The translations under genes and the position numbers were made by a program. The notes below the pieces were generated by a model, which worked only from the letters and a program-made list of their open reading frames with translations, made no database searches and was not told the DNA's origin. Below are positions 483 through 17,407 of a DNA stretch of 23,851 bases, in pieces. The first letter of the stretch is position 1. Each line of letters begins with the position of its first letter. Source of the stretch: Anaerolineae bacterium (GTDB lineage Bacteria; Chloroflexota; Anaerolineae; S140-20); NCBI GenBank assembly GCA_027021705.1, contig JALUTT010000155.1:1-23851 (forward strand), in the 5' to 3' direction.

Positions 483-3341
483 TTGGGCAAGCTGGATTTG
501 CAACGCATCGCACTGCTGATCGGCAAGCAGGAGCCCTCGGTCTTGAGGGACTACCTGGACCACGTGGCCAACGCCGGGCTGACCGCCTACAAAGCGGTGC
601 TCCAGTGGGGCGACAAGCGGGGCGAAAGCCTCTACACCCACGTCCTAAACGGTATCCTCGTGCTGGAGACCCTTCGGGACCCCCTAGGGCTCAGCGATGA
701 GGAGGCCCGGGTGCTCTACACCGCCTTCACCATCCACGACCTCAACAAGGCCCTCGAAAGCGAGCAACCCTTTGGCAAGCTGGCCGTCGAAGAGAACGTC
801 GCTGCCGAGATCGAACGGTTGGGGATGGACCGCTTCTTCCCCGCCTGGCGGGATTACCTCAGCGACATCACCAGCCTGATCCGGGCCCACTCCGGCCACC
901 ACCACAGCGGCGGGGAGCGGTGGAACCTCCGGCGGGCCTCGGTCTACCGGCTGGGGCTGGACCGGGTCAACGCCCTGGTCCACCTGATGCGGGCTGCCGA
1001 CGTGGTAGACCTCTCCCACACGCTGGAGGAACGGGCCAGGAAGGCCGACTTCTTGAGTTACGTCAACGCCTACCTGGCCGACAGCGGCCGACCGGTCCAG
1101 TACGAGTTCGTCACCCATCGGCTGACGGAACAGCGGGGCCTCCTGACCAACGTCGTCCACAACGGCATCGTCGCCGAGCTCCAGGAACGGTACGGGCTGA
1201 TCCCCCTGCTCTTCTACCCCGAGGGCGTTGCCTACCTGGTCGAGAAAGGTCGCGCCCCCACCATTGGCGAGGAGGACCTGGAGCGGATGGCCCGCCGCAT
1301 CGCCCAGACCATCTCCGGGATGACGACGGCCAAGTTCCGAGAGTTCATCAGCTCCACCGGCCAGGGTATCAAGGTGGACCCCAAGTGCCTGGAGATGGGG
1401 GTGCCCTTCCGCGAGATCCTGGGGGAGATCCACAACCGCGTCCAGCGGCGCTCCTTCAACCCGGAGACCTTGGACGCCGGGGCACGCCGTCGGCTTCGCC
1501 GGGCGCTGGAGAAGGGCCGCGCCCTCCCCGAGGATGTCGTGGCGGACTTGGAAGGCCAGGCTCCCCTCGTCAGCACCCATCCCGACCGCCTGCGACTGGC
1601 GGAGCTCCTGCGGGCCTACTACATCTTCCTCAACAGCCACTTCCGGGACGTGATCCCCGAGGCCTGGAAACACATCTACGCCCTGATGGAGCTCCCGCCG
1701 GAGCGAACGGCCTACTACGAGGCCTTCGACGCCCGCTACGACCGGGCCTACGTGCTCGCCCGGGACCTCACCCTCTCCGAAGAGGAGGTCTACCACCGCA
1801 TCGAGGCCGACGGCACGGCCCTGATGCAGGAGAGCGGGGTGGGCGAGGACCCCAAGATCGCCCTCTTCACCGACTACCTGCGGCTCTACTTCCTCTTCGA
1901 TGTCGGCGGGCGCCCGACGGTGCGCTTTGGGGAACACCTGGCCCACTACGTGGGGAACCAGCACAAGCAGTGCGTCTACTGCAGCGGACCCTTCCCCACG
2001 GCCAAGTGGATGACGGCCGATGTGCGCCCCGACATCACGGTACAGACCTTCTCCAACCGGCTGCGCGGGGGGCCGGGGGAGCCCAAGAAGCATATCTGCG
2101 CCGTCTGCCACCTCCAGTTCCTGCTGGAGAAGCTGAACTACCCGCCGGTGCGCGGGGAGAAGCTGATCTACCTGCACCTCTACCCCTACTCCTTCCTGAC
2201 CCAGCCCTTCATCGAAGGGCTCCGAGCCACCGTCGCCCGCATCGTCACCGAGGACACGGCGGTGCAGGCCCTCAACATGCGGGTTTCCGAGGCCGTCGAG
2301 GCCTACCTGACCCGGCGCACCGTCACGCCCACCTTCCGCAGCCGTACCCAGAAGGGGAGGCCCCAGCCCTACGGAATCTACCTGCCCCGCTACGCCGAGA
2401 CGGTGGGCAACCTGCTCATCTTCCCTATCAACGCCGGCGGGGAGAACGACACCGCCCGCTTCCTCTTCGCCCTGTGGAACGCTCTGCTGCTCCAGCGCTA
2501 CTTCGGCGTGAAGGTGTTGATGAGCAACGCCCCCGTTCCGCCGCTGGGCAAGGAAGAGATCCCCGACCTCTACGTGGACAACATCCCCCTCGCCTGTCAA
2601 GGGCTGTTGCCCCGCAACGATTACGCCCAGTTCGAGGATGGGACGAACCGGGAGGGGACCCTGCCCAAGCTGTGGGAGGATGTGGGCCACCTCTTCGCCT
2701 TGCGGCGGCTGACCTTCGTCAAAGAGGACACCACCCCCCGTCTGGTCCGGGCCCTCTTCGGCAACCCGCTGACCATCTTCTACGAGACGGACCGGCTGCT
2801 GGAGGCCCGCGTCCGGGGTCAGGAGCAAGGGGGACTGGTGACCTGGCTATCGCAACAGGCTTTCCCTCACGTGGAAGCCCTCGCCATCAGCAAAGGAGGA
2901 CGCTTTATGACCCAACTGAGCACCCAACTACAGCGATTGGCCGAGATCGCCTGGAAGGGCGGCCTCCGGGGCCGCTCTCTGGAGCGGAGCAGCCTGCTCT
3001 ACCCGGTCGGCGAAGTCTTCGCCAAGCTGAGCCACGCCGGCGGCCACGTGGACCGGGAGGCCCTGAAGGCGGCGGCCGTCCAGGACATCTTCGACCACCT
3101 CACCCGCATCGCCGACGAGCAGTACAGGCCGGGCCGCAAGAAGTGGGAGGCGACCAAACAGTTCGTCGAAATCTGGTTCCACGACGTGCTGGAGGGCGTC
3201 TACGGCGGCAACCTGCGCAAGCTGCTCGCCGACGAGAAGCTGATCCGCTCCGCCTACCTCTTCTACGTGCGCGAGCAGATCCCCCGCAAGGAGGACCGGC
3301 TTCCCGAGGCGGAGGCGCTGCCGGACGAGGAAGCCGGGTAA
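483..3341 (+). CDS. cas10d: Type I-D large subunit Cas10d/Csc3 with N-terminal HD nuclease
   Basis: 952 aa. HD motifs LYTHVLNG, TIHDLNK, RAADVVD; zinc finger CVYC...FSNRL...ICAVC; YLHLYPYSFLT motif; GAGGAGGTG RBS before TTG; upstream of csc2/csc1. Confidence 0.93.
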   Translation: MGKLDLQRIALLIGKQEPSVLRDYLDHVANAGLTAYKAVLQWGDKRGESLYTHVLNGILVLETLRDPLGLSDEEARVLYTAFTIHDLNKALESEQPFGKLAVEENVAAEIERLGMDRFFPAWRDYLSDITSLIRAHSGHHHSGGERWNLRRASVYRLGLDRVNALVHLMRAADVVDLSHTLEERARKADFLSYVNAYLADSGRPVQYEFVTHRLTEQRGLLTNVVHNGIVAELQERYGLIPLLFYPEGVAYLVEKGRAPTIGEEDLERMARRIAQTISGMTTAKFREFISSTGQGIKVDPKCLEMGVPFREILGEIHNRVQRRSFNPETLDAGARRRLRRALEKGRALPEDVVADLEGQAPLVSTHPDRLRLAELLRAYYIFLNSHFRDVIPEAWKHIYALMELPPERTAYYEAFDARYDRAYVLARDLTLSEEEVYHRIEADGTALMQESGVGEDPKIALFTDYLRLYFLFDVGGRPTVRFGEHLAHYVGNQHKQCVYCSGPFPTAKWMTADVRPDITVQTFSNRLRGGPGEPKKHICAVCHLQFLLEKLNYPPVRGEKLIYLHLYPYSFLTQPFIEGLRATVARIVTEDTAVQALNMRVSEAVEAYLTRRTVTPTFRSRTQKGRPQPYGIYLPRYAETVGNLLIFPINAGGENDTARFLFALWNALLLQRYFGVKVLMSNAPVPPLGKEEIPDLYVDNIPLACQGLLPRNDYAQFEDGTNREGTLPKLWEDVGHLFALRRLTFVKEDTTPRLVRALFGNPLTIFYETDRLLEARVRGQEQGGLVTWLSQQAFPHVEALAISKGGRFMTQLSTQLQRLAEIAWKGGLRGRSLERSSLLYPVGEVFAKLSHAGGHVDREALKAAAVQDIFDHLTRIADEQYRPGRKKWEATKQFVEIWFHDVLEGVYGGNLRKLLADEKLIRSAYLFYVREQIPRKEDRLPEAEALPDEEAG
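2907..3341 (+). CDS. cas11d: Cas11d small subunit from an internal start in cas10d (144 aa)
   Basis: In-frame ATG at 2907 (MTQLSTQLQRLAEIAW...) preceded by AAAGGAGGA. Internal translation of Cas11d from cas10d is established for type I-D. Confidence 0.8.
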   Translation: MTQLSTQLQRLAEIAWKGGLRGRSLERSSLLYPVGEVFAKLSHAGGHVDREALKAAAVQDIFDHLTRIADEQYRPGRKKWEATKQFVEIWFHDVLEGVYGGNLRKLLADEKLIRSAYLFYVREQIPRKEDRLPEAEALPDEEAG

Positions 3342-3359
3342 ACAGGAAGGAGGCAACCC

Positions 3360-3581
3360 GTGGCCTACGAAATCCGAGTACTCTTCTACGGAAGCGAGAA
3401 GGCGATGCAGAAGGGCATTGCCAAGATGCAGAAGCGCGGATGGGAGGTGGTGGACACCGAGGTCGTCGAGCAGGGATACGGATGCCTCAAGACCGGCTGC
3501 CTGGGGGCCATCTTCCTCCCCCTGGCTTTGCTGGGCAAGAAGCCCAACCGTTACAAGGTGACCTATAGGCGACCCCGGTAG
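3360..3581 (+). CDS. Small hypothetical protein, 73 aa, with a short hydrophobic segment
   Basis: AAGGAGG RBS before GTG. Fills the gap between cas10d and cas7d, with host-like GC3. Contains GWEVV and GCLKTGCLGAIFLPLALLG followed by a basic tail. Confidence 0.7.
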   Translation: MAYEIRVLFYGSEKAMQKGIAKMQKRGWEVVDTEVVEQGYGCLKTGCLGAIFLPLALLGKKPNRYKVTYRRPR

Positions 3582-3658
3582 GTCTTCCGTGCCTCTGTTG
3601 TCGTCCGTACTTGTGAGATTCCACCGACTGACCCGCCAAGTTCACAGGAGGTTATGCC

Positions 3659-4633
3659 ATGTCCATCATCGAGAAGTACGCCGACCACTTTCTGCCCGCC
3701 TACAGCAACTATCCCCAGGGGCGCTACATCAGCCTGTTGCTGGTGCGCCGCGTCGAGTCCGAGGCGATCTTCCGCACCGAAGGGAGCGGGGAGCCGCTGA
3801 GCAAGGAGTTCGTCCACGCCGGCCTGGACGGCGGTGAGGTGATCCAGCGCGTGGTCATCAGCAAGCGGAAGCAGACGGCGGTAGAGCGCCGCACCGGACG
3901 CGAGTTGTTGCGCCGGCACGAGATGCTTTTCCCCGGCCAGCGGACGGGCGTGTTGTGCGCCCTCAACCGGAACGATCCCTGCGAGCGCTGTATGGACTGC
4001 ATGATCTACGGCTACGCTGCCGGTGGGGGCGGGGCCCAGAAGTCGCGGGTGGTGACCGACGATGCCTTCAGCCTGCACGACGCCGCCGTGGTGACGGCCA
4101 CCAAGCAGTTCAACGCCCTCTTCGACACGGGCACGATGCGCGACCCGGAGACGGGCAAGCCGTCCACCAGCATCGGCACCGACGAGTACGTCAAGCCGGA
4201 GACCCTCTTCCTGGACATCGAGACGGTGCGCGACGTGACGAGCGACGAGTTCCTCTACGTCCTGGGCAACGTCCTGCGCTCCACCCGCTACGGGGCCATC
4301 TCCTCCCGCATCGGCAAGGTCAAAAACCTGCTGGCCGGCGTGGTGTTGAGCGACTGCGAGATCTTCAGCAACCTGGAGCTGACTCAAGCCGTCTACGACC
4401 GGCTGCGGAACGGCTCGCAGGAGCCGGACTTTCCGCTGCGGTCGGACGTGGTGGTCGAGGCCGTGCGGGCGGCGACGGCGGAGTTGGCCGAGCGTGTCGT
4501 GGGCCGGCTGACCATCCTGCCCGCCGATGAGGTGGCCGCCCTGGTGGACGAGGTGACCGCCTTCTACCGGGACGAGGAGGCGGTGAAGGCGATGCTGGAG
4601 CGGGCGACGGCGATGTACGGCCCCCAGGGGTAG
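3659..4633 (+). CDS. cas7d: Type I-D Cas7/Csc2 backbone subunit
   Basis: ESEAIFRTEGSGE, ISKRKQTAVERRTGRELLR, CERCMDCMIYGYA, SRVVTDDAFS and RYGAISSRIG are Csc2 motifs. CAGGAGG RBS. Confidence 0.95.
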   Translation: MSIIEKYADHFLPAYSNYPQGRYISLLLVRRVESEAIFRTEGSGEPLSKEFVHAGLDGGEVIQRVVISKRKQTAVERRTGRELLRRHEMLFPGQRTGVLCALNRNDPCERCMDCMIYGYAAGGGGAQKSRVVTDDAFSLHDAAVVTATKQFNALFDTGTMRDPETGKPSTSIGTDEYVKPETLFLDIETVRDVTSDEFLYVLGNVLRSTRYGAISSRIGKVKNLLAGVVLSDCEIFSNLELTQAVYDRLRNGSQEPDFPLRSDVVVEAVRAATAELAERVVGRLTILPADEVAALVDEVTAFYRDEEAVKAMLERATAMYGPQG

Positions 4634-4644
4634 GAGGTGCCCCG

Positions 4645-5412
4645 ATGCACATCTACCGTTGTGAACTCACCTTGATGGAAGCGACCTTCTTCAGCAGCCG
4701 CGAGGTGAGCAACACCTATCAGACCGAACCCCTCATCGGGAACATAGCCCTGGCCTACGCCTTCGGTTTCTGCCGGGCTCCCTACTTCAACGACGGCACG
4801 ATCCACTACAAGGCGCACCTGGGGGCGTTGAACGAGGCGGGGATCTACGTCACGCCGGCCACCATCGTCGGCGAGCCCCGCTTCACCCTGGCCCAGTTCA
4901 ACGCCCAGGCCGACGCCTACTGGTACGCGATGGCGAACAACGTCATCGTCACGCGGCCCGACGGGACCTGGATGGAGAGGCGGGGGGCGGCCTGGTACAT
5001 CAAGCGCTACCCCGGCGACCGGGGGCAGAAGGTGGGGCTGGAGAACCGGCCTCAACACGGGCGCATCCGCATGCTGGCCATCGGCAACCGGGCCGTGGCC
5101 TACGTGCTCAGCCGGAAGCCGGTGGTCGTGCCGCGCTACGTGCGGCTGGGCAAGTTCATGAGCAAAGCGCGGGTGGTGGTCGAAGAAGAGTCGGCGCGGG
5201 AGGTGGAGCGGGAGGGGGTGGTCATCCCCTTCCTGCTCAACCCGGCCGACCTGCCGCCGGGGATGGAGCCGACCATCTTCGACCTGATCAGCGTGCCGCC
5301 GACCCCTCTGGTGCGCAACGCCCGCCTGAGCGGGCGCTTCTACCGGCTGCCGGACCGCACCCTGCTGCCGGTGGGGATGCGGTTTGGGGTGGAGGGGTTG
5401 GAGAAAGAGTAG
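4645..5412 (+). CDS. cas5d: Type I-D Cas5/Csc1
   Basis: MHIYRCELTLMEATFFSSRE, IGNIALAYAFG, YVTPA and PRYVRLGKFMSKARV are Csc1 motifs. AGGAGG RBS. Confidence 0.93.
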   Translation: MHIYRCELTLMEATFFSSREVSNTYQTEPLIGNIALAYAFGFCRAPYFNDGTIHYKAHLGALNEAGIYVTPATIVGEPRFTLAQFNAQADAYWYAMANNVIVTRPDGTWMERRGAAWYIKRYPGDRGQKVGLENRPQHGRIRMLAIGNRAVAYVLSRKPVVVPRYVRLGKFMSKARVVVEEESAREVEREGVVIPFLLNPADLPPGMEPTIFDLISVPPTPLVRNARLSGRFYRLPDRTLLPVGMRFGVEGLEKE

Positions 5413-5424
5413 GGTGGATGATAA

Positions 5425-5446
5425 GGACATAATCCGGACATAATCC
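5425..5446 (+). repeat. Perfect 11-bp tandem duplication GGACATAATCC x2
   Basis: Copies at 5425-5435 and 5436-5446, read directly from the sequence. Confidence 0.95.
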
Positions 5447-5466
5447 GTCAAAGACAGCGAGAGCAG

Positions 5467-7773
5467 TTGCTATACGACCCGACATCGGGCAGATCAAAAG
5501 CTGTCTTGGACGAGTGGCCAAGCACTTTCGGTGTGGTCAATGTCCCACTTGGGGAGGGACTAATGAGCCGAGTTCAAAAAGTAATCTGCCTTGCGGCCTA
5601 TTGTGCTGCTGATGCCCGGGGACGGGTATCCTTGTTAGACAGATTGGCAGCCGCGGCGTGGCGTGATGGTCTAGCACATGTGCTACGCAATACCCTGGAT
5701 GCCCTAGATGTGCCACGCCTGACTCGTCGCTTGACCCGACCCCAATCAGCAGAGCCGCTGGATTGGGCCGAGGTGACAAACGATGGCAAACAGGTGCTTT
5801 GGTGCAATACATCCATCGGTCAAATACACACATTCTACAAGACCATCTTCCCCCAAGAAGCCCAAGCACGCATTGCATATGAAGTCTTCCTCGACCGCTT
5901 CTTGGGTTATATCCAGCGCACCAAGAAAGTAGCCGTGTTGCACCAAGGTGACACCGACGTGACGCTGTTCGTGCCGGAGGGGGTGGACTTTGGTCTGATG
6001 ACGACCTGGGATGATTTCGTGGACTGGACCTTCTCAGCCGAAGAATTACGCAAGAGCTTTGTGTTGCTGGTAAACTCTATCAGGTTGAGCGATCGAGGTA
6101 TCAGCACGCTTAGCACCCCCATCGTGAACGCAAATCAGGCCCTGGTTTTGGCTGCTTTTTATCGGGCCAACTTGTTAGCGTTGGAACGGGGTGACGAGCG
6201 GCGGCGAAGGGATCTCGCTCAACTACGAGGAGAATTGGCAGATGCCAAAACTGAGAAAGAACGAGGAGAGATTGGAAAGAAAATAGCCAAGCTTGAAGGG
6301 GAGTTGGAAACGCGGATGAAGAGATACGGCAAGGCTTACGAGGCAATGGAGGCCCTGCGCCAGCAATTTCCGGATTGGGTAGGACTAGTTGAGCATATTG
6401 CCCGTCAAGAGATGGGGGAACAGGCTAGTCGGCAATTGAAGAAGCGAGGGAATATCGTGGCCAAGTGCGTAAGCGAGATGAAGAAACTAGCGCAATTAGT
6501 GCAAGTGGAGAAACCCTTCCGACCAAGACCGATGTTGGCTGAAGCCCCTTTAGACTGGGGGGCGAGAGGTGGTGGAGACGCAAGCGGTGAGTTCTGCTAC
6601 ACTTGCGGACGGCGATTTGGTCCAAAGGAGGAAAAATACAAGGCCGGAAAGTTCGTCTTCGAGAGCCCTTCGCAGCGTTTGCAATCAGGAGGCGGACAAA
6701 CAGAGCCCCAGATCTGCGCTACTTGTGCGGCCGTATCCTTCGTCTCCCCCATCAAGACCGGTAGTGATCGGTTGGTCATCCGTCTCCGCCGACCTGGCGA
6801 TGATGGCCGCTATCTGCTAGAAGATCAACTGCGAATGCTGACATTGGGACAACTGAATGTGGTAGCTGGACGCTATGCTTTGATCCAGGCTCCAGAGCAA
6901 GTGCACCGGCAGCGAGGACGAGAGCCTCTGCCTAAGGTGATGGGACGGCGGCAATATGCCCTTTACAAAGTCGCTACGCTATTTCCACCCGAGGTTTTTC
7001 GCAACTATCAGGTGGAGGTGCTTATTGGAGGCGCTGAAGTGGCCTTGTCCAGTCGCCACCTGAGCGCTGCAAGAGGATTGATAGAAGTCTTCAAGCTAGA
7101 CAACCGGCATTGGTGGGAGGAGAAAGGGAAGTTGAATAGCGTGGTCCGAGCTATTCGTCATATTGAGCAAGAGAAAGTGATATTTGCAACATATGAACTG
7201 CTCCGGGGCGGGCTGCTTCGTGGCAATCGATTTTACATCACACAGGGCAGCCGCTTGGAGACCCTTTATGAAGACCATTGGAGGTGGCTTATGAACGAAC
7301 AACCGACCGAAGCACAACGCTTCCGTGACGTGGCAGCAATGACCGGCCTGCTCTACGCTTTTTGTGAATATGTGCGTAGCCAAGTCCGGGAAGCAGGTGG
7401 CGATGTGCGTATCGAGGTGCGAAAGCTCATCGAACGAGCTATAGATCCCTTCGGCTTCAATTACACAGCCGCAGGCAACACCAAGAGCGAGAGGGCCACC
7501 CTCTTCCGCAACGCTGATCTATATTTCTGTTTCGATCAAGCCAAAGCACTGCTGGAAGAGTTGGAAGTGGACATTGCTGAGCGAGAAGGGGTCACCGAGA
7601 AGGGCACAGCCACGTTGGTTCTCTATTTTGATGACGTGGTCAAAGCCTATACCTACCTCTTCGAGAACCGTTATCCAACGCCAAAGGCGCAGCGAGATTT
7701 CACTTATGCTTTGCGCTTGAGCTTGCATTCCCGTTTCCCCGAATTGATGGAGCGGGAGGAAAAAGGAGGTTAA
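5467..7773 (+). CDS. Putative Cascade large subunit (Cas8/Cas10d-like, no HD domain); start uncertain
   Basis: Up to 768 aa. Zinc finger CYTC...SQRLQSGGG...ICATC parallels CVYC...SNRLRGGPG...ICAVC of the local Cas10d. Contains a charged coiled-coil-like stretch and is the first gene before cas7/cas5-like genes. Alternative starts: ATG 5563 (GGAGG RBS) or a frameshifted GTG at 5414. Confidence 0.7.
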   Translation: MLYDPTSGRSKAVLDEWPSTFGVVNVPLGEGLMSRVQKVICLAAYCAADARGRVSLLDRLAAAAWRDGLAHVLRNTLDALDVPRLTRRLTRPQSAEPLDWAEVTNDGKQVLWCNTSIGQIHTFYKTIFPQEAQARIAYEVFLDRFLGYIQRTKKVAVLHQGDTDVTLFVPEGVDFGLMTTWDDFVDWTFSAEELRKSFVLLVNSIRLSDRGISTLSTPIVNANQALVLAAFYRANLLALERGDERRRRDLAQLRGELADAKTEKERGEIGKKIAKLEGELETRMKRYGKAYEAMEALRQQFPDWVGLVEHIARQEMGEQASRQLKKRGNIVAKCVSEMKKLAQLVQVEKPFRPRPMLAEAPLDWGARGGGDASGEFCYTCGRRFGPKEEKYKAGKFVFESPSQRLQSGGGQTEPQICATCAAVSFVSPIKTGSDRLVIRLRRPGDDGRYLLEDQLRMLTLGQLNVVAGRYALIQAPEQVHRQRGREPLPKVMGRRQYALYKVATLFPPEVFRNYQVEVLIGGAEVALSSRHLSAARGLIEVFKLDNRHWWEEKGKLNSVVRAIRHIEQEKVIFATYELLRGGLLRGNRFYITQGSRLETLYEDHWRWLMNEQPTEAQRFRDVAAMTGLLYAFCEYVRSQVREAGGDVRIEVRKLIERAIDPFGFNYTAAGNTKSERATLFRNADLYFCFDQAKALLEELEVDIAEREGVTEKGTATLVLYFDDVVKAYTYLFENRYPTPKAQRDFTYALRLSLHSRFPELMEREEKGG
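7291..7773 (+). CDS. Putative internally translated Cas11-like small subunit (160 aa)
   Basis: In-frame ATG at 7291 (MNEQPTEAQRFRDVAAMTGLL...) preceded by GGAGGTG. The product looks helical and occupies the same relative position as cas11d in cas10d. Confidence 0.65.
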   Translation: MNEQPTEAQRFRDVAAMTGLLYAFCEYVRSQVREAGGDVRIEVRKLIERAIDPFGFNYTAAGNTKSERATLFRNADLYFCFDQAKALLEELEVDIAEREGVTEKGTATLVLYFDDVVKAYTYLFENRYPTPKAQRDFTYALRLSLHSRFPELMEREEKGG

Positions 7774-7776
7774 ACA

Positions 7777-8718
7777 ATGACTGTTCAGACCAATGTCGGA
7801 TTGCCAAAGGTGGACGTACCGCGCTATCACTTCGACATCTACGCTGTGCTGGAAGGGCCACAGGAACTATACTTCGGCCACGAGACCCAGGTGGGTGTCA
7901 ACATTGTGGAGACCGTACGCATCGCTACTGAGAAGGGTGAGATGGAGAAGTGCTACATCTCCCCCACCAAGCGGCGAGGAGTGGAGCGCCGCACCCTTAT
8001 CTGGGCACCCGTCCAGTCGGAGGGGGTACTGCTAGGCGATAAGCTGGGCTGTGGTGTTCCCCACACTTGTGCCCAACCCACTTGCCCTATCTGTGCCGTC
8101 TTCGGTGGCCTTATCACTTCTACGACCAATGTGGACGTGATGGGCAAGACCGAGAAGCGTTCACCGACGACCACCATCGGTCGGCTGGTGCATGGTGGAG
8201 GGGTGGCCATCCAGCCCCAAGACGTGGTGGAGAAGCAAAGGGCTATGCACCCTTCGATGATGCATAAAGCTCCTGAGAAAGAGCCCACACCTATGCCCTT
8301 CCGTCGCCAGTACAACGAGCCAGGGCTGCTCTATCCCGTTTATAACCACTGCCTGAGCGTCACCGAGGCTGAGTTCACCGCCGTAGCCTATGCGTTCCTC
8401 AATGCTTTGGCCCGGCTGGGCGCGGGTAATCCTAAAGGAGTGAGAATCTACGAAGGTAAGCTGATCGAGGAGCAAGAGCCACTATTGGTGGTGGATCGCT
8501 ACCTAGTGCCCCTGGGTAAGCGGCCTATCACTTCGCCGAGCGTGACCAGCATTAGGGAAGCATTGGCCCAATTTCGGGCCGATGCCCTCCAGGTCGAAGG
8601 GCAGACAGTTGCCCAGCATGAAGTCTCAGGACCCCACTTCACACGGTGGCTAGGCAGTGCTGCATATCGGAAGCTGCAGGAATACGCCGTGCAGTTCGCT
8701 GAGCTCTATCTGAAGTAG
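7777..8718 (+). CDS. cas7: Divergent Cas7-family backbone subunit (Csc2-like)
   Basis: ISPTKRRGVERR resembles Csc2 ISKRKQTAVERR; Cys cluster CGVPHTCAQPTCPICAVFGG; RLGAG loop; AAGGAGG RBS; 313 aa. Confidence 0.8.
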   Translation: MTVQTNVGLPKVDVPRYHFDIYAVLEGPQELYFGHETQVGVNIVETVRIATEKGEMEKCYISPTKRRGVERRTLIWAPVQSEGVLLGDKLGCGVPHTCAQPTCPICAVFGGLITSTTNVDVMGKTEKRSPTTTIGRLVHGGGVAIQPQDVVEKQRAMHPSMMHKAPEKEPTPMPFRRQYNEPGLLYPVYNHCLSVTEAEFTAVAYAFLNALARLGAGNPKGVRIYEGKLIEEQEPLLVVDRYLVPLGKRPITSPSVTSIREALAQFRADALQVEGQTVAQHEVSGPHFTRWLGSAAYRKLQEYAVQFAELYLK

Positions 8719-8728
8719 GGGGAGACCA

Positions 8729-9493
8729 ATGTACTACCTCCAACTAGACATCCGTCCAACGGGGGGATTGACCTTCCGTCGAATGCCCGGCAGCATTCTG
8801 CACATTTCCACCTACCCCTTTCTGCCGCCGAGTACAATGTCCGGCTACCTGCGGCGCCTGTTAATGTTGACTAAAGGGATATACCCCGCTACTGCCATTA
8901 AGAATGCTCCTTACTATGTCCTACCCCGGCCACCTTATTATGTGCTGGGAGCTTATCCAGTGCCCCGTGAAGCCTACCGGGTGCATACCACTCACCGCCA
9001 GGGAGTGAGAGCCTTCACCTATACTGCCTTTTCTCGTTTGAGCTGGTATCCTACCGGCAAGGAAGTCTACCAGCTTCACACATGGGAGTATCTCTTTGTT
9101 GAGCGGTTGCGAGGGTATGTGGTCAGTGAGGAACCAGGGCCGCTAGAGCGACTGAAGAGCGTGACCAACCTGGGATGCAAGCTGGGTAAGGAAGGGTATG
9201 CTTACGTCGAGGGTATCTCGGAGCCCCGAGCATTGGAGCGGCGTAAGATGAGAGCAATGCCCAGCGTGTTGATCCCGGCAACTGAGTTGGTGGGGATACC
9301 CAGTACGGTCTACACTCTTTACCGGCATAAGCACGAAGGACAGATAGCACTGGACAGATTGGCCGAACCTGTGCCCAATCCCATCGCCGGCTTCATGCCC
9401 TTTAGGGCTGGATGGCCAGCGGAACCGGTGGAGATAGATTACTGGACCGACGGAGAGGTTCTTATCCCAGCCAGCTTACTGGAGGTACTATGA
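8729..9493 (+). CDS. cas5: Divergent Cas5-family subunit
   Basis: N-terminal LTFRR...STYPFLPPSTMSGYLRRL is the Cas5 signature; KLGKEG glycine loop; follows cas7. Confidence 0.82.
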   Translation: MYYLQLDIRPTGGLTFRRMPGSILHISTYPFLPPSTMSGYLRRLLMLTKGIYPATAIKNAPYYVLPRPPYYVLGAYPVPREAYRVHTTHRQGVRAFTYTAFSRLSWYPTGKEVYQLHTWEYLFVERLRGYVVSEEPGPLERLKSVTNLGCKLGKEGYAYVEGISEPRALERRKMRAMPSVLIPATELVGIPSTVYTLYRHKHEGQIALDRLAEPVPNPIAGFMPFRAGWPAEPVEIDYWTDGEVLIPASLLEVL

Positions 9494-10266
9494 TGAGCAA
9501 ACGACAGGTAGGCCGGGTTGTCTTCGGGTTTGACGAAAAAGGCCAAGCCCAGTGGATAGTCTTAACTTTGGCATGTCATGTAAACAATGTGGTTCAGCTA
9601 GTGAGAGCATGGGACAATGGAAGAGCTTACTTGGACACCGCCGAGCTTGACTTGGATGCCACCAAGTCTCGCTTGGTGCGAGCGGCTGAGATTCACGATA
9701 GTGCTAAGCCGATCAAGTTCCGCATTATCTACCGGGAGAACCCTTTCCGCCAGGGCGAGATGGAGTGGGCATACTCCTTTGCGGGACACCGCTTCGAAGT
9801 GTACGACCCAGACCCTTATATCCAAACCCTAGCCCGGTTGCACCACGACTACTCGGTGGCGGGGATCACTCAAGGGGTAGCCCGTTTACGAGCTGATGGC
9901 GAGCCCCACGCAGCCAATTTGCCACTTGACCTCTACACATTAGAGATATGTGACCAGATCGAAGCCACGTTGGCGCGGGCAGTGTTAGGCGGCGATCTGG
10001 AGAGGCGGGTGTTTATGGACTTTCATATCGAACCGGTAAGCGAATGTCATTACGCCCTTGATCCCTACCCCTTTGCCACTGATGAAGTACGATTGGGCAT
10101 TGAGTACTCCCGACTTCGCCCCCCAAAAGAGCTTGTTGACCGAGTGGAGGCAGGGAGCAACAAGGATAAAGCGTTGGAGGAATTAACAAGCTGGGTCGTT
10201 GAGGCTTTGCAAACGGCCCCTCTAGAGATAAAGGAGGTAACAATATGCGCTTTGGCTCAACCGTAG
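9490..10266 (+). CDS. Stand-alone HD nuclease (Cas3''-like)
   Basis: Cas3-HD-type residue set: TLACHV, AAEIHDSAK, FAGHRF, RLHHDYS, ICDQIEA. GGAGG RBS, and ATG 9490/9493 overlaps the cas5 stop, so this start is preferred over 9412. Confidence 0.8.
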   Translation: MMSKRQVGRVVFGFDEKGQAQWIVLTLACHVNNVVQLVRAWDNGRAYLDTAELDLDATKSRLVRAAEIHDSAKPIKFRIIYRENPFRQGEMEWAYSFAGHRFEVYDPDPYIQTLARLHHDYSVAGITQGVARLRADGEPHAANLPLDLYTLEICDQIEATLARAVLGGDLERRVFMDFHIEPVSECHYALDPYPFATDEVRLGIEYSRLRPPKELVDRVEAGSNKDKALEELTSWVVEALQTAPLEIKEVTICALAQP

Positions 10267-11999
10267 GGGAGGCCTACCAAACGTTGACTCAATTCAGCCC
10301 CAACCCAATGCAAGAAGACATATGGCGAGCATTGGTGGAAGATGAGAATGGCGGATTGTTGCTTTTAGCTCCGACCGGGAGTGGCAAGACCGAGGCAGTG
10401 GCAGTGCCCGGTTTGGCGTTGGGCCGCCGCATTTTCGTTGTTCTGCCATCTCGCAGCCTGGTGGATGATCAGTTCGTCCGCTTCGCGAAGATGGTGCAGC
10501 GGGCCTCGGCTTGCGACACAAGCCGCCCCTACAGCCTGGTAGTAGATACCGGAGCCCTGTCAGAGCGGCGGGTTTGGAACAGAGGAGTGCCAGTAGGCAA
10601 CCCTCAGCGTCGTCACCTATACCAAGGGGATATCATCCTCACTACGTTGGATAAATTTCTCTATCGCTTCTTCGGCTTCGGTGAGCCGAGGAAGTCTTAT
10701 GTCTTTCCCTTACATATCCATTATGGCCTACATCACCCTCTCTTCTGCTTTGACGAAGCCCACAGCTACGATGCGGTGGCGTGGACCAACTTTCGCTTGC
10801 TGCTGCGCGCTCTGTACGAGAAGGGGTTAGACGTGGTGGCTATGACCGCAACGATGCCACCAGCATTTGCAGCCGATCTGAATTTTCTCGATAAGCAAAA
10901 CTGGGTAGATGGGCCAAACCGAGCCAGGTTAGACAAGTTCACCCGGCGGGCTAACCCCCAGCGAGGGCTGACTTACGTGTCGTGTGAGTTGGACAAGGTC
11001 CCAAACAAGATGATAGCACTCGCTCAGGAGCACCACGCTCCTGATAGGCGGACCATCGTTGTTGTGGGAACAGTACGCGATGCCGTGACTATCCATCGGC
11101 AGCTAGATGGGGCGCTGCTCTACCATGGCAGGCTCACTGCCATGCAGCGATGGAAGATTTACCACCAACTAAAACGATATGAGGAGAAAGGCGAGGGCTA
11201 CCTGTTGGCGACTACGAGTGCTATCGAGGTTGGCTGTGATCTGGATGCTCACACCCTTATTACCCAATTATGCGATCCAGATCAGCTACTCCAGCGGGCT
11301 GGTCGCTGCAACCGCAAAGGAGAGATGAAGAGCGCTCAGGTCATCGTTGTCGGCAATCGCATCCCCTGGTTCTTGACCGTTCTCTCCGATGAGGCCCAGG
11401 CGGCTTATAGGGCAACGCTGATGGAGATGAACGGCAATATATTGGACTCAACCGCTGTGCAAAGGCACATTATTAAAGAGCCGAATCTTGACTATCGGGT
11501 GGAGGTTGCCTTCCGAATGCTTTATGAATACGTATACGAGGCGGCGGTGGAGAACAAAGGACTGCATGACAAAGGGCTAGTCATCACTCGTAGTTGGGAG
11601 CCATCAGTGATATTATATACAGATATTGATGCAAATGGTCAATTGCGCAATCCTGTTCGAGTCTCCATTAAGCAATGTGTGGCCAACTCAAAGGATGAAC
11701 TGACACCTGGCTGTCGGGTCTACAGGCGAACTTTTAGCCAGCAGGAACATCAACCCGTCATTGAACCGTTGCGTTATGGTGGCTGTGCTTACCTGGTTGA
11801 TCTCATCGTTAAGGTGCCAATGGGATTTTTTGATGAAGAGATCGGGTATGCCAAGGTTCCAAAAGTTTTCCTTCGGCAAAAGCGCTGGTCTGATGATCCC
11901 TACAGGGAACGTTTGATTTACCCTCTTCCGAATGGAAAGCAAGCCTGGTTGTGGTACGTAGCACCTCTGGAATTCGTGAAGGTGAGAAATGCTGACTAG
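10245..11999 (+). CDS. cas3: Cas3' SF2 helicase without HD domain
   Basis: APTGSGKTE (I), TTLDKFL, FDEAH (II), MTAT (III), LYHGRL, TSAIEVGCD, QRAGRCNR (VI). AAGGAGG RBS; 584 aa. Confidence 0.9.
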   Translation: MRFGSTVGEAYQTLTQFSPNPMQEDIWRALVEDENGGLLLLAPTGSGKTEAVAVPGLALGRRIFVVLPSRSLVDDQFVRFAKMVQRASACDTSRPYSLVVDTGALSERRVWNRGVPVGNPQRRHLYQGDIILTTLDKFLYRFFGFGEPRKSYVFPLHIHYGLHHPLFCFDEAHSYDAVAWTNFRLLLRALYEKGLDVVAMTATMPPAFAADLNFLDKQNWVDGPNRARLDKFTRRANPQRGLTYVSCELDKVPNKMIALAQEHHAPDRRTIVVVGTVRDAVTIHRQLDGALLYHGRLTAMQRWKIYHQLKRYEEKGEGYLLATTSAIEVGCDLDAHTLITQLCDPDQLLQRAGRCNRKGEMKSAQVIVVGNRIPWFLTVLSDEAQAAYRATLMEMNGNILDSTAVQRHIIKEPNLDYRVEVAFRMLYEYVYEAAVENKGLHDKGLVITRSWEPSVILYTDIDANGQLRNPVRVSIKQCVANSKDELTPGCRVYRRTFSQQEHQPVIEPLRYGGCAYLVDLIVKVPMGFFDEEIGYAKVPKVFLRQKRWSDDPYRERLIYPLPNGKQAWLWYVAPLEFVKVRNAD

Positions 12000-12837
12000 T
12001 ACTGTGGTTAAACTGCGGGCGATGAACGATGGCCGGTTGCCATTGGCAACAGGTGAGTATGGTTATGCTGCTTTCCTGAGTCTGATCCGCAAAGTAGCAC
12101 CCGATTTGGCCCAGGCACTACACAATGCTGGGACCCGCCAGCCCTTCACGGTCTCCCCTCTACAAGGACGGATGCGATGGTGTAGAGGAAGATGGCAGGT
12201 TCGAACAGGGGCAGACTGCTGGATGCGATTTACTATCCTTGACCCGGCTCTCTACACTGCCTTCTCACGCTACTTTGCCGAAGCCCAGACATTCGACCTG
12301 AAGATCACCCTAGATGCTGTGAACTTTGCTGTAGAGGAGGTTACCACAACTCAAGGCAAATGGAGCGGCTATGCCACCTTCAAGCAACTCCTCACGGAGG
12401 CAAGTGACGATCCGGAAATCCCCCTGCGTTTTCACAGCCTTACTGCTTTCAGCCTAGGCGATCTGAGTGGAGTGGGTCCTCGAATGGCCATGTTTCCCGA
12501 AGCCGAGCTGGTTTTTGGTAGCTTGTTGACCAAATGGAACACCTTCGCTGATATCCTCCTTGAACCCCAACCACTTCGTGAGTTGATGAAGGACCAGTGT
12601 ATCCTGGTCAAACGCTACCGATTGGAAAGCCGAGTCTGGCAATTCCAGCGTCACCTACAACCGGGGTTCGTTGGCTATTGCGTGTATGAGGTCAAAGGAG
12701 CTACGGCTGAGCAACGACGTTACTTCAACACCCTGGCTGACTTCGCCTTTTATGCCGGTGTAGGCTATCGCACAACTATGGGTATGGGCCAATGCCGACG
12801 TATCGCTGACAAGCAGAATAACAATAGTGACCGATGA
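11989..12837 (+). CDS. cas6: Cas6 endoribonuclease (copy 1, in the inserted block)
   Basis: PFTVSPL, VFGSLLTKWN and C-terminal LADFAFYAGVGYRTTMGMGQ glycine-rich loop. Confidence 0.92.
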   Translation: MLTSTVVKLRAMNDGRLPLATGEYGYAAFLSLIRKVAPDLAQALHNAGTRQPFTVSPLQGRMRWCRGRWQVRTGADCWMRFTILDPALYTAFSRYFAEAQTFDLKITLDAVNFAVEEVTTTQGKWSGYATFKQLLTEASDDPEIPLRFHSLTAFSLGDLSGVGPRMAMFPEAELVFGSLLTKWNTFADILLEPQPLRELMKDQCILVKRYRLESRVWQFQRHLQPGFVGYCVYEVKGATAEQRRYFNTLADFAFYAGVGYRTTMGMGQCRRIADKQNNNSDR

Positions 12838-15182
12838 TAAGCATAGCTCTGCTCCCCCAAACCGAAAAACTGGCTCCCACCACCCCGTGGGACCTCCCAT
12901 ACCCGCTCCTCTACCACCAGTGGCGCACCGTCGAGGCCCTGCGCACCCACGACCTGGTGGTCAACACCTACAATACCGGCACCGGCAAGACGCTGGCCAG
13001 CCTCCTCTACCTCTTCACCTTGAACGGAACAGGGAAGAACGTCCTCTTCATCGCTCCCACCAACGCCCTCCTGGCCCAGCACGCCGAGGACGCCGCCACC
13101 TTCGTCGCCGACCACGGTCTGGACTTCAAGGTCCTGCCGATCAACGCCGCCGAGGTGCGGGCGCTGCGGCTGGCCCAGGACCCCGACGCCCCTCCCGCCC
13201 GCCCCGGCGAACTGCTCCAACGGCTCATCCGCAACTACCTGGAGTTCGAGCCGGAGGCCACCCGTCGCCGGCCCATCATCCTGGTCGTCAACCCCGACAT
13301 CTTCTACTACGCCCTCTACTTCCGCTACGCCGCCCACGACCGGCGCAACGTCTTCGAGCGCTTCCTGACCGCCTTCGACTACATCATCGTGGACGAGTTC
13401 CACTACTACGACAGCAAGCAGCTCTCCAACTTCCTCTTCGCCTTCGCCCTCTTCGACCAGTTCGGCTACTTCGACGTGCGCGGGCGCAAGGTCTGCCTCC
13501 TCTCGGCCACGCCGACGGGGGAGGTGGTGGGCTACCTGGACCGGCTCTTCGGGGACCGCTGGACGCTGATCAGCCCGGAGAACGAGCCGCCGGAAAGCGC
13601 CGACCTGCCGACCACCCCCGCGCTGACCCCCCTGGAGCTCACCCTGGCATCCGATGAGTTCCAGGAATGGGTGGCCGTCCATCGGGATGACCTGGTCCGC
13701 TGGGTGGTGGAAGAGGACCTGGACGGAGCGCTCATCAGCGACAGCCTCTGGCGGGTGAACGCTGCCTACGCCGCGTTGCGGAACGTCCTGGCAGCCGAGC
13801 GGATGGGCCGTATCACGGGGCCGGAACCGCCGGAGGCCCGTGTCCAGGCCACCGCCCGCGACCTGATCCTGGCCACGCCGACGGTGGACATCGGCTACAA
13901 CTTCAAGAAAATGGGAAAGACCCGGCAGAACTTGGACTTCGTCGTCTGCAGCGCCCGCCACAGCGATGCCCTGATCCAGCGGATCGGGCGGGCCGGACGG
14001 GTGCTGGGCAAGCCGGAGACCGACCGCCCCAGCCGGGCCATCGTCCTCCTGCCGGAAGAGGCCCTGCAACGTCTGAAGGCTTACGATGGGCAGACCCTCA
14101 GCCGGAGCGACTTCGCCGGCCTCATCCGTGAGGAGGCCAACCTACCGCCCAAGCACGCCCTGACCCACTACATCCGCACCCACGCCATCGTCGAATCCTT
14201 CTGGCCCATCTACCAGATCCGCAAGGTGCTACCTCCCCAGGAGGAGGCCGAGGTCGAAGCCCTCTTCGAGCGGGTGCGGGAGGTCTTCGCCCCCCACAGC
14301 CGGCGCACCTTTAAAGGGCTGCGGTGGTTCTTCCGCAAGCTGGAATCCCGGGAGCGATGGTTGGGTGAAACCCGTCGGGGCCGGATGCCCTTCAACCAGT
14401 ACACGGCCGAGCACCTGGCCGATTGGCTGGAGTGGCTGGACCCGGAGCAGGGCCACCTCGATCCCAAGGACCTGCTGCCCTACTTGCCCCAACTGCTAGG
14501 CGACGACGCCCAGCAGCAAGCCCTGCGGGCCTTCGTCCAGAGCCAGGTAGCGGTCACGCGGGCCCTCTTCGCCTTCCGTGATAGCTTCCAGGGGCCGACG
14601 GTCGTCTTCTACGACCCCCGACACATCTTTTCCAGCGAGACCGTCAACGCCTACGATCTCTTCCACCTGCTCAGCTACTATCGGCTCTCCCCGCCGATGA
14701 GCCGTCGCCGGTTTGAGGAGCAGTTCGGGGAGACGCCGCTGCGTGGACGCTTCTACGTCCGGCTGCTGGGGCCGCGCGATTCCCGCCTCTTCCTGGAGCT
14801 GGTCTACGAGAGCGAGGAGCCCCAAGAGGAGTTCGAACGCCGGTGGTGTGGCGCACCGGTCGCTTTGCAGGGCCTCCGGCTCCAGGCCCGGTCGCCCGAG
14901 GGTGGGGTGATGGCAGGCGCGTTGGACCAACGGTACGTGGAAGCGCTGACCGAGCGGCACATCCCGATGCTCATCGTGCCTCCCGATTCGGTGGGGGCGT
15001 TGATCGCCCGGCTGCGGGGCACGGACCTCTGGGCGCGTCGCCTGACCGTCCGCTTTCCCGAGGGTACGGTGGAAGAAGGATACCGAGCCGTCCTGGGCAC
15101 CGGTGCTTTCCACGCCCACGCCGAGTTGCAGGGCTACTTTCGGATGCGCGAGCGGTTGAAGCCGGAGGCGATCATCCTCTGA
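12834..15182 (+). CDS. cas3d: Type I-D Cas3' helicase (Cas3d)
   Basis: LLYHQWRTVEAL, YNTGTGKT, IAPTNALL, NPDIFYY, VDEFHYY, LLSATP, ATPTVDIGYNF and QRIGRAGR; no HD domain, as expected for I-D. Confidence 0.92.
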   Translation: MISIALLPQTEKLAPTTPWDLPYPLLYHQWRTVEALRTHDLVVNTYNTGTGKTLASLLYLFTLNGTGKNVLFIAPTNALLAQHAEDAATFVADHGLDFKVLPINAAEVRALRLAQDPDAPPARPGELLQRLIRNYLEFEPEATRRRPIILVVNPDIFYYALYFRYAAHDRRNVFERFLTAFDYIIVDEFHYYDSKQLSNFLFAFALFDQFGYFDVRGRKVCLLSATPTGEVVGYLDRLFGDRWTLISPENEPPESADLPTTPALTPLELTLASDEFQEWVAVHRDDLVRWVVEEDLDGALISDSLWRVNAAYAALRNVLAAERMGRITGPEPPEARVQATARDLILATPTVDIGYNFKKMGKTRQNLDFVVCSARHSDALIQRIGRAGRVLGKPETDRPSRAIVLLPEEALQRLKAYDGQTLSRSDFAGLIREEANLPPKHALTHYIRTHAIVESFWPIYQIRKVLPPQEEAEVEALFERVREVFAPHSRRTFKGLRWFFRKLESRERWLGETRRGRMPFNQYTAEHLADWLEWLDPEQGHLDPKDLLPYLPQLLGDDAQQQALRAFVQSQVAVTRALFAFRDSFQGPTVVFYDPRHIFSSETVNAYDLFHLLSYYRLSPPMSRRRFEEQFGETPLRGRFYVRLLGPRDSRLFLELVYESEEPQEEFERRWCGAPVALQGLRLQARSPEGGVMAGALDQRYVEALTERHIPMLIVPPDSVGALIARLRGTDLWARRLTVRFPEGTVEEGYRAVLGTGAFHAHAELQGYFRMRERLKPEAIIL

Positions 15183-15302: not shown

Positions 15303-16202
15303 ATGGCAGGTGATGACAGCGGGACCCTCTACTCCGTCGTCCTCACCCTGACCCCCGCCCACGAGGCGAGGGTGCGGGCGACGATGGGAGCCCAGGCCCA
15401 CGCCGCCTTCCTGCACACGGTGCGGGAAGCGGACCCGGCCCTGGCCGAAGTGCTGCACGCCCCCGACCTCCCAATGCGCCCCTTCACCGTCTCGCCGCTG
15501 CACGGGGTGGGCCGTGCCCGAGATGGGATGGCCCACCTCTCGCCGGGGCGGGACTACTGGCTGCGTTTCACCATCCTCTACCCTCCCATCTTCGAGCGGT
15601 TCATGGCCCGCTTTCTCCACAGCGACGGACGGCCCGCCATCCGGCTGGGCCGGGCCCGCCTGCTCATCCGGGAGATCCTGGCAACGCCCGAGAGCCACCC
15701 CTGGGCCGGCTACACGACCTGGGGGCACCTGGCCGCCCAGGCCCAACCGACCGATACCATCGTCCTGGAGTTCGTCTCCCCCACCGCCTTCAGCTTCGGG
15801 ACGAAATCCTGGGGGCGAAAAGTGATCGTCCTGCCGGAGCCCGACCTGGTCTTCGGCAGCCTGGTCAAGACGTGGAACGCGCTGGCCCCGGCCCCCTTGC
15901 AGATCGTCTGGAAGTCGCTGAAGGAGTACGTCGAAGAGCACGTGGTCATCAAGCGCCTGGAGGGGCTGGAGACGAAGATGCACCAGTTCCGCAAGGCCCC
16001 CCAGGTCGGCTTCATCGGGCGTGTCACCTACGGCCTGATGGCCGACGACGACTTCGCCCGCGCCCAACTGAACGCCCTGGCCGACTTCGCCTTCTACGCC
16101 GGCGTCGGCATGAAGCGGGCGATGGGAATGGGGCAAACTCGGCGGATAGTCCGCAGTCCTCAGTCCGAAGTCCACGGTCCAAAGTCCAAAGACCATGGCT
16201 GA
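15303..16202 (+). CDS. cas6: Cas6 endoribonuclease (copy 2, resident I-D)
   Basis: PFTVSPL, SPTAF, VFGSLVKTWN and LADFAFYAGVGMKRAMGMGQ. The last ~17 residues are encoded by a heptamer repeat array. Confidence 0.93.
   Translation: MAGDDSGTLYSVVLTLTPAHEARVRATMGAQAHAAFLHTVREADPALAEVLHAPDLPMRPFTVSPLHGVGRARDGMAHLSPGRDYWLRFTILYPPIFERFMARFLHSDGRPAIRLGRARLLIREILATPESHPWAGYTTWGHLAAQAQPTDTIVLEFVSPTAFSFGTKSWGRKVIVLPEPDLVFGSLVKTWNALAPAPLQIVWKSLKEYVEEHVVIKRLEGLETKMHQFRKAPQVGFIGRVTYGLMADDDFARAQLNALADFAFYAGVGMKRAMGMGQTRRIVRSPQSEVHGPKSKDHG
16148..16196 (+). repeat. Heptamer tandem array (AGTCCNN)x7, left arm
   Basis: Units agtccgc agtcctc agtccga agtccac ggtccaa agtccaa agaccat. Confidence 0.9.
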
Positions 16203-16238
16203 GGGGCTGCAATCATCCGTTGATAGGTGGGAGGGGGT

Positions 16239-16604
16239 ATGGCTATTGAGCGCTTTGAAGAGATCAAGGCCTGGCAGCGAGCTCGCGAGTTAACCAAGCA
16301 GGTATACGAGGTCTCCAAAACCAGCAGCTTCGCCAAGGACTTCGGTCTGAGGGATCAGATCCGAGCGGCGGCGGGGTCGGTGATGCACAACATCGCCGAG
16401 GGGTTTGACGCGGGTTCGGACCCCGAGTTCATCCGATTTCTCGGGTATGCCCGTCGCTCGGCTACGGAGGTTCAATCCCAACTCTACGTCGCCCTCGATC
16501 AGGGATACGTCAGCCAGGCACAGTTTGAGCGCACCTATGACCTGGCAGAGCAATGCAAGCGGCTTATCAACGGTTTCATTGCCTACCTGCGCAGTTCTGA
16601 CTAG
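16239..16604 (+). CDS. Four helix bundle protein (23S rRNA intervening-sequence protein / bAvd-like family)
   Basis: FEEIKAWQRAREL, DFGLRDQIRAAAGSVMHNIAEGF, EFIRFLGYARRSATEVQSQLYVALDQGY are family motifs. GGGAGGGGG RBS before the ATG at 16239. Confidence 0.92.
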   Translation: MAIERFEEIKAWQRARELTKQVYEVSKTSSFAKDFGLRDQIRAAAGSVMHNIAEGFDAGSDPEFIRFLGYARRSATEVQSQLYVALDQGYVSQAQFERTYDLAEQCKRLINGFIAYLRSSD

Positions 16605-16704
16605 CACACAGTGCCAGGAGCCGGTTCCCCGGCCACGGCGTGGAAGTTCTCCTGCTTGTCCACGCAGCTCTAACCAGCCCGCAGTCTCCAGCCAGTTAGA
16701 ACCA

Positions 16705-16788
16705 TCGGACTATGGACCGTGGACTGTGGACTGTGGACTGCGGACTATGGACTATGGACTGTGGACCACGGACTACGGACTATGGACC
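16705..16788 (+). repeat. Heptamer tandem array (NNGGACY)x12, right arm, inverted relative to the left arm
   Basis: Units tcggact atggacc gtggact gtggact gtggact gcggact atggact atggact gtggacc acggact acggact atggacc. Confidence 0.93.
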
Positions 16789-17378
16789 GACCAGACTACC
16801 TACCTATTTCTATGCTCAACCAACTGGAATACTGCGAACGGCGCTTCTGGCTGATGTACGTCCAGGGCGAGATGGAGGTCAACGCCCCCGTCCTGGAGGG
16901 CATCCAGCAGCACGAGCGGGTCCACACCGGTGGTGTCGAGCAGCAGGGCGCGACCATCGTCCACCGCCGGGTCTACCTCTGGTCCGACCGGCTGCGGCTG
17001 GTCGGCTTCGCCGACGTCGTTGAGGAGCGGAAGGGGGAGTTGATCCCGGTGGAGTACAAGCGGGGGCGGATGGGGCGCTGGCTCAACGACCACATCCAGC
17101 TCTGCGCCCAGGCGATCTGCCTAGAGGAGCGGACAGGGAAACCGGTCCGGGAAGGGGCCATCTTCTACTGGAAATCCCGACGCCGAGTCAAAGTGGAATT
17201 CACGCCGGAGCTGCGTGCCCGCACCGAGCAGGCCATTGCCCGGGCCTTTCAACTGCTGCAGGAAGGCCGGCTGCCGCCCCCCATTGACCATCGGACCAAG
17301 TGCCACGACTGCTCGCTGGAGCCCATCTGCTTGCCCCGGGAAGTGGAGATCCTGTTGAAGCTGGAGGAAGAAGGCTGA
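16782..17378 (+). CDS. cas4: Cas4 exonuclease
   Basis: DYLPISMLNQLEYCERR, GFADVVE, PVEYKRG, QLCAQAICLEE and KCHDCSLEPIC (Fe-S cysteines). The ORF extension upstream of 16782 is just translated heptamer repeat. Confidence 0.93.
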   Translation: MDRPDYLPISMLNQLEYCERRFWLMYVQGEMEVNAPVLEGIQQHERVHTGGVEQQGATIVHRRVYLWSDRLRLVGFADVVEERKGELIPVEYKRGRMGRWLNDHIQLCAQAICLEERTGKPVREGAIFYWKSRRRVKVEFTPELRARTEQAIARAFQLLQEGRLPPPIDHRTKCHDCSLEPICLPREVEILLKLEEEG

Positions 17379-17407
17379 TGGCCCAGTTGCAAGTGTGGGA
17401 GGATGGT

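Follow-up and report, generated by a model that had tools for sequence, protein, structure and literature searches.

A Thermus-type I-B interference cassette lodged between the cas5d and cas3d genes of a type I-D CRISPR-Cas operon from an Anaerolineae bacterium

Introduction

How does a complete effector module of one CRISPR system come to lie in the middle of another system's operon with no mobility gene beside it? The question is raised by a contig of 23,851 nucleotides (nt) from an Anaerolineae bacterium (JALUTT010000155.1, assembly GCA_027021705.1), analysed here in its entirety and called the window, in which a 7.4-kb block separates cas5d from cas3d in a type I-D operon. The block is a complete Thermus-type I-B interference cassette. 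An initial annotation had noted a 9-bp direct repeat bracketing it and read this as a target-site duplication or a microhomology-mediated insertion. Comparison with the empty allele of a sister strain puts the limits of the last event outside the repeat, and points instead to recombination in the ends of the flanking genes. The locus is a variant of known composite loci, and its value lies in the sister-strain breakpoints and in the recurrent use of this junction by relatives, not in the 9-mer.

The inserted cassette

Six effector genes, cas8-cas7-cas5-cas3''-cas3'-cas6, tile positions 5563-12837 on the forward strand, and PADLOC names Cas8b, Cas7b, Cas5b, Cas3 and Cas6 among their products. 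The first, cas8 (5563-7773; PDLC01527, E 9e-141), likely starts at the ATG at 5563, judging from the N-termini of its homologues; its longest open reading frame (ORF) opens at TTG 5467. It is followed by cas7 (7777-8718; PDLC01388), about 51% identical to the pTT27 protein of Thermus thermophilus HB8, by cas5 (8729-9493; PDLC01389), 45% identical to Thermus, and by a stand-alone Cas3'' HD nuclease gene (9490-10266), whose product matches the N-terminal part of Thermus Cas3 (37%). The latter has intact HD-type motifs by eye and no family match in library scans of the window ORFs. The cassette closes with the Cas3' helicase (10245-11999; TIGR01587 above cut-off; motifs I, II, III and VI present) and cas6 (11989-12837; PF10040, PF19308), the stop of which overlaps the cas3d ATG by 4 nt. 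Helicase and Cas6 motifs are intact in cassette and host genes alike.

By tblastn all six genes match, in order, the T. thermophilus pTT27 operon (NC_006462, TTH_RS11130-11155; 29-51%), and the block has the Cas8-Cas7-Cas5 order, the Cas3 nuclease and helicase, and the cas6 after cas3 that characterise Thermus-type I-B, a system active in vivo in T. thermophilus (PMC10989782, PMC12102369). It differs from the Thermus operon, which reads WYL-cas8-cas7-cas5-cas3-cas6, in that Cas3 is split into nuclease and helicase genes, as also in two other Anaerolineae copies (L013 and L078), and in that it lies within an I-D operon, brings neither adaptation genes nor an array with it and has no upstream WYL regulator, of which no match was found on the window contig. 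A WYL gene does occur elsewhere in the genome (contig C59, 7146-8156), 62% identical to the one preceding a free-standing cassette in another genome, G074.

The block is compositionally foreign, the G+C content at third codon positions (GC3) being 0.55-0.67 for its six genes and 0.88-0.95 for cas10d, cas7d, cas5d, cas3d and cas6d. The initial annotation had already proposed, from the letters alone, the entry of an entire effector cassette lacking a mobility gene into the cas5d-cas3d junction, and this holds. A scan of 17 ORFs, all on the plus strand, turned up no transposase or integrase family. No relative of the cassette Cas7 was found among viral contigs, and among solved structures none matched Cas7 while Cas8 gave chance-level matches only. 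The 150-nt leader of the cassette contains an 11-bp unit twice over (5425-5446, forward strand), which may be an operator; a scan of 5300-5650 called neither a sigma-70 promoter nor a terminator.

Breakpoints against an empty sister allele

Is the joint between the two systems real? Three sequencing runs contain part of the window: X1, possibly the source run, and X2 and X3, which come from one separate study. In X1 a single mismatch-free contig covers 5371-12881, reaching 46 nt before the left copy of the 9-mer (5417-5425) and 40 nt past the right copy (12833-12841), and because it spans the block from flank to flank both junctions are read-supported. Its depth of 54.8 is lower than that of the flanking contigs (71.9 and 69.2), as would suit an assembly or binning chimera in which a low-GC organism's cassette was joined to a high-GC operon, but the spanning contig, together with reading frames and ATGA coupling that are intact, makes such a chimera very improbable.

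The empty site that the initial annotation had postulated exists in X2 and X3, where the block is covered at trace depth or not at all. A 6196-nt contig of X3 joins cas5d to cas3d, matching 400-5393 with 65 differences and 12864-13164 with 3 differences, the two parts being separated by 52 unlike letters, and the same 5393/12864 joint is found in X2 at a depth of 15.8. The sister strain in these runs is 98.7% identical, and the filled and empty alleles differ by about 1% in the flanks, a divergence that lets the differing tract be bounded; the tract favours exchange of a junction allele over transposition. The tract runs from 5394 to 12863, with the 52 other letters in its place in the sister; it begins 23 nt before the left 9-mer, ends 22 nt after the right one, and includes the tail of cas5d (5394-5412) and the first ten codons of cas3d (12834-12863). 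Excision at the 9-mer would predict 54 letters matching the window, as against the 52 unlike letters that the sister holds. The X1 contigs break at 5400 and 12852, likewise not at the 9-mers. Since the empty allele breaks at 5393/12864, the 9-mer is not the breakpoint of the last event; breakpoints elsewhere in a relative that lacks the block were the sign by which the initial annotation had itself proposed to judge its idea. The arrival of the cassette is recent, given its foreign composition and the empty sister strain. An empty allele was also sought within the window's own genome, which has no second copy of either junction. Extra X1 depth near the junctions was considered as a second allele and could not be assigned to one, as neighbouring bins have a like excess from other contigs.

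Composition tells a similar story on the right-hand side. The shifts had been taken to coincide with the two 9-mers, and this fails at the right copy, where the GC3 change point lies at 12878 (2-log-unit interval 12872-12902) and that for all bases at 12872 (12840-12903); on the left the corresponding points are 5406 (5379-5484) and 5398 (5363-5422). Codons 2-11 of cas3d score +8.6 bits insert-like, compared with -4.8 to +2.3 in five other host genes and +3.6 to +18.0 in five insert genes, and two of the first four cas3d codons are ATA, which makes up 1 of 112 host isoleucine codons. Insert-like codons extend beyond the right 9-mer, to at least 12848. The head of the window Cas3d is nevertheless a typical Cas3d N-terminus, and a typical head written in insert-like codons argues that the donor had a cas3d behind its cassette.

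The protein ends flanking the junction also vary among close relatives. Cas5d proteins with 244-245 of 249 residues identical end in DQLP or EELP, and that of the window in EGLEKE; one Cas3d that is 94% identical past residue 10 shares only 3 of its first 10 residues with the window Cas3d. The sister strain's N-terminal Cas3d fragment was absent among the 10 matches listed, of which the best reached 76%. At least three junction alleles occur among cas5d genes that are 98% identical.

The explanation that best accommodates these observations, and that we hold as a whole with somewhat better than even confidence, is exchange of the junction allele with a donor I-D locus, combined with use of the resident array. 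The donor would already have held the cassette between its own cas5d and cas3d, and its cas5d tail, cassette and cas3d head would have been transferred as one piece by crossovers in two conserved stretches, the 3' end of cas5d and the 5' end of cas3d. No mobility gene would be needed, because the cassette would be exchanged by recombination in the flanking gene ends. Once in place it would probably be co-transcribed with the I-D genes, and cas3d would stay translationally coupled through its ATGA overlap. This overlap with the upstream stop and the missing ribosome-binding site had been remarked on in the initial annotation, and neither is an anomaly: the same ATGA/GTGA overlap is found in 43 of 84 relatives with an empty junction, and an ATGA-type overlap also joins cas5b and cas3'' inside the cassette.

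The 9-bp repeat

What, then, is the 9-bp repeat? The window does contain exactly two copies of GATGATAAG, which start at 5417 and 12833 and are both on the forward strand, the right copy containing the cas6 stop and the cas3d start, and excision in silico at the repeat does set the cas3d ATG 5 nt after the cas5d stop, both as first described. Some insertion sequences and transposons create 9-bp target-site duplications, and the block resembles such elements in having a 9-bp direct repeat at both ends, here 22-23 nt inside the tract limits. Unlike them, it has no terminal inverted repeat, exact inverted matches between its two ends reaching 6 nt at most; no transposase or integrase was found in cis, and a one-copy site is not what the nearest empty allele shows. 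Across the 5.19-Mb genome the 9-mer occurs 13 times, both strands counted. Among 20,000 random pairs of genome segments, 3.0% share a 9-mer at ±25 nt and 10.6% at ±50 nt; when real junction sequences from different loci are paired, 2 of 1634 pairs do. The 9-mer thus exceeds chance by a modest margin: it is uncommon, though hardly remarkable for something that came to notice because it was looked for, and by itself it carries little weight.

Could the cassette have been inserted in this very lineage, at the cas3d start, by a 9-bp duplication or microhomology, the sister's empty allele having itself been exchanged at a hypervariable junction? The rarity of the 9-mer by chance, the plausible junction that excision yields, the TGA of the left copy lying in the cas5d reading frame and the existence of several junction alleles in near-identical strains all suit such an event. 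It has to contend with the breakpoints seen in X2 and X3 and the contig breaks in X1, with insert-like codons past the right copy, with the lack of transposase and terminal inverted repeat, and with the lack of any such repeat at the other nested modules described below, and we regard it as unlikely, if the strongest of the alternatives. Target-site duplication or microhomology fits the last event poorly, as its breakpoints lie elsewhere, and is a possible earlier one. An older event of this kind at the cas3d start of the donor is plausible because the left-copy TGA stands in the cas5d frame, as the vestige of an ATGA-coupled cas3d start would, and the left copy is possibly such a vestige. Under exchange of the junction allele, the 9-mers would have been carried along inside the tract, probably though by no means surely as the scar of that older primary insertion, and otherwise by chance.

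The cas5d-cas3d junction in relatives

Is the junction singular in the window? Searching with Cas5d found 141 I-D loci, 129 of which contain its 3' end, and these fall into 109 groups at 95% identity. In 84 groups cas3d lies within 150 nt of cas5d, and in 18 foreign effector genes directly follow cas5d; of the rest, 3 stop short of the needed sequence, 3 show a gap of 215-607 nt and 1 is unclassed. The modules are III-C or a cmr1 piece in 13 groups, type IV-like in 4 and both in 1, and all 18 belong to the 59 groups at 60% identity or more, with none among the 50 below. A cas3d is visible behind the module in 4 of the 18 (L041, L044, L106 and the 232-nt remnant of L097), nesting being not demonstrated in the other 14, where the DNA ends first. 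In an evenly drawn sample of the class, cmr3 stands directly upstream of 2 of 10 other cas3d genes, and in one of these two, L176, a full III-C module separates cas5d from cas3d. IV-C-like modules, so labelled from Csf2 and Csf3 matches and an HD-like motif seen by eye, occupy the junction in L041 and L106; their type IV-like large subunit had no PADLOC match at 1e-8. A quick tree was built from 72 Cas5d rows of 55% identity or more, tail columns kept; three of its rows were labelled empty without sight of their DNA. On it the filled state requires 13 changes, of which well-supported branches force at least 9. The cas5d-cas3d junction is a recurrent landing place for extra modules in relatives.

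At the four modules that are fully visible (L041, L044, L106 and L176), no terminal repeat longer than 6 bp was found, the longest exact end-to-end matches being 4, 4, 6 and 6 nt, and the L097 remnant has no terminal repeat like the 9-mer.

Two further features of these junctions may be mentioned. Between cas5d and cas3d, L041 (10762-16201) holds a short ORF resembling, by eye, an IS200-type transposase, a cmr1 fragment and a frame-broken IV-C-like module, which are successive occupants of the same site. Right at the cas5d stop, an extended -10-like word is present in L016, L035, L037, L081, L090, L104 and L107, and could drive the downstream module; 7 of the 18 loci with a module have it, as against 0 of the 84 adjacent ones, a weak contrast since the adjacent loci were searched within cas3d coding sequence.

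Free-standing copies and the shared array

The cassette is rare, its cas7 being present, besides the window's own genome, in 2 of 400 genomes of the class and 2 of 400 of the phylum; the stretches retrieved from these contain no I-D effector genes. The closest homologues of the cassette Cas7 stand at 89% (P0016), 82% (P0002) and 77-79% (P0003-P0010). These four other Chloroflexota copies all stand outside I-D operons, and three of the four follow a WYL gene. Could the cassette have come straight from such a free-standing I-B locus, replacing some 50 host bases at random? The setting of the four copies suits this reading, in which the 9-mer would be an AT-rich stop/start coincidence: in the frame of the gene upstream both copies spell TGA TAA, as gene ends commonly do, and 3-11% of random segment pairs share a 9-mer. 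Random DNA would not, however, supply the normal Cas5d tail and Cas3d head in which the tract ends, and an illegitimate replacement appears quite improbable, though more likely than a chimera.

Three free-standing copies (L013, L162 and L163) use 37-nt repeats of the same family as those of the window. In L163 the Cas1 falls within the I-D clade, as the sister of an I-D Cas1 (SH-aLRT, Shimodaira-Hasegawa-like approximate likelihood ratio test, 99), and no I-D effector match lies within the 20 kb fetched. A second mix of I-D and I-B systems is L057 (14020-17455; in the cas5d group of L125 and L126), an I-D locus with only cas3''-cas3'-cas6 of the I-B family (28-45%) after cas3d. In L078 (8909-15999, in G074) a full III-C module directly follows the cas6 of the same I-B cassette.

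The window itself has one array, of 63 repeats of 37 nt (19131-23706, forward strand, found by repeat search), and the same repeat recurs on two other contigs, in one array of 162 units and one of 19, so that more than 240 repeat units were already in the genome. The cassette probably shares the I-D array and loads its CRISPR RNAs (crRNAs), since its free-standing copies use the same repeat family and the published protospacer adjacent motifs (PAMs) are compatible: the GGTN predicted from spacers for Thermus I-B (PMC6452258) is a subset of the GTN shown for I-D (PMC5896167). Judged from the repeats, part of the more than 240 units could thus serve it, and loading of the shared crRNAs would furnish a second DNA-cutting complex acting on a subset of the same spacers.

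Several points weigh against junction exchange with array sharing. No locus that could have been the donor, with the cassette core (cas8, cas7, cas5) between cas5d and cas3d, is present among the 141 I-D loci, nor does any of the four other Chloroflexota copies lie in an I-D operon. At the sister joint the 52 letters were scored only as unlike, the letters themselves being unread; X2 and X3 come from a single study and probably represent a single strain; and the second path in X1 appears as contig breaks and a depth step, with no joint listed. The cas5d tail gives no clear insert-like codon signal (at most +1.9 bits). Three or more junction alleles in near-identical strains leave the direction of insertion unfixed, and the sister may have lost the block. 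The scarcity of shared 9-mers between real junctions also belongs on this side. As to the array, TTC has been reported as an active PAM for Thermus I-B as well (PMC10989782), so the PAM is not settled; protospacers for 239 spacers sought in the own genome gave only two 19-nt partial matches, and those for the window array sought in a phage collection gave none.

Relation to composite CRISPR loci

With two effector sets, one cas1-cas2 and one repeat type, the window is a complex locus. As PMC7145637 describes them, such loci have one adaptation module and several interference modules, mostly of type I plus type III and often separated by arrays, and it is rare for most type I systems, with the exception of I-B, to be found in a shared locus. 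The likeness lies in the single cas4-cas1-cas2 set and single repeat accompanying two effector sets; the difference is that two type I effectors are nested here and one operon is split. In situ exchange of effector modules is treated as an accepted trend in PMC12669027, and the window resembles it in that the effector genes are altered and the adaptation genes and array retained, L163 being an example; it differs in that both effectors are present and the limits of the tract are readable against a sister strain. Type IV-C has been co-localised with I-D in five cases (PMC13676074), likewise a foreign effector module beside I-D genes, whereas the module here is type I-B. We found no report, in the open-access literature as far as it was accessible, of an I-B cassette inside an I-D operon or of this junction as a recurrent site.

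Effector swapping in place has been accepted from gene trees and is seldom seen at base resolution. Could the window have caught it midway? We advance only tentatively, as possible and well short of probable, that the Anaerolineae I-D cas5d-cas3d junction is an exchangeable slot for III-C, IV-C-like and I-B modules, passed on by flank recombination and filtered for use of the resident array, and that this locus is an intermediate of an in situ replacement of I-D by I-B, in which a single array feeds two DNA-cutting complexes of compatible PAM and the scar of first insertion is still present. Because modules of three types recur at one junction, the movement of modules without mobility genes becomes testable, as does the idea that two type I complexes on one array and PAM serve as backup against escape or anti-CRISPRs.

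The host type I-D locus

The genome has 66% GC, and the cas genes of the window are nearest to Anaerolineae records. The locus reads csx15, cas10d, a 73-amino-acid ORF, cas7d, cas5d, the block, cas3d, cas6d, a four-helix-bundle gene, cas4, cas1d, cas2 and the array, and has what type I-D calls for: Cas10d with an HD motif, Cas7d, Cas5d, a Cas3' helicase, Cas6, Cas4-Cas1d-Cas2 and an array. On the forward strand lie the large subunit cas10d at 483-3341 (TIGR03174, PADLOC Cas10d and motifs), cas7d at 3659-4633 (TIGR03157), cas5d at 4645-5412 (TIGR03159) and the helicase cas3d at 12834-15182 (TIGR03158). Family scans place cas6d, the four-helix-bundle gene and cas4, cas1d and cas2, the sole adaptation module of the locus, at 15303-18775 on the same strand.

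The 73-amino-acid ORF (3360-3581), which has a hydrophobic stretch, gave no family match in library scans and none in the mapped I-D loci; it is also present in the sister strain's contig. Cas6d has 299 amino acids here, 15 more than the 284 of near-identical relatives. The four-helix-bundle gene (23S rRNA IVP-like; 16146-16794) is bordered by inverted arms of a 7-nt tandem repeat, and the contigs of all three runs break beside it, at 16145; this region is probably a second strain-variable insert.

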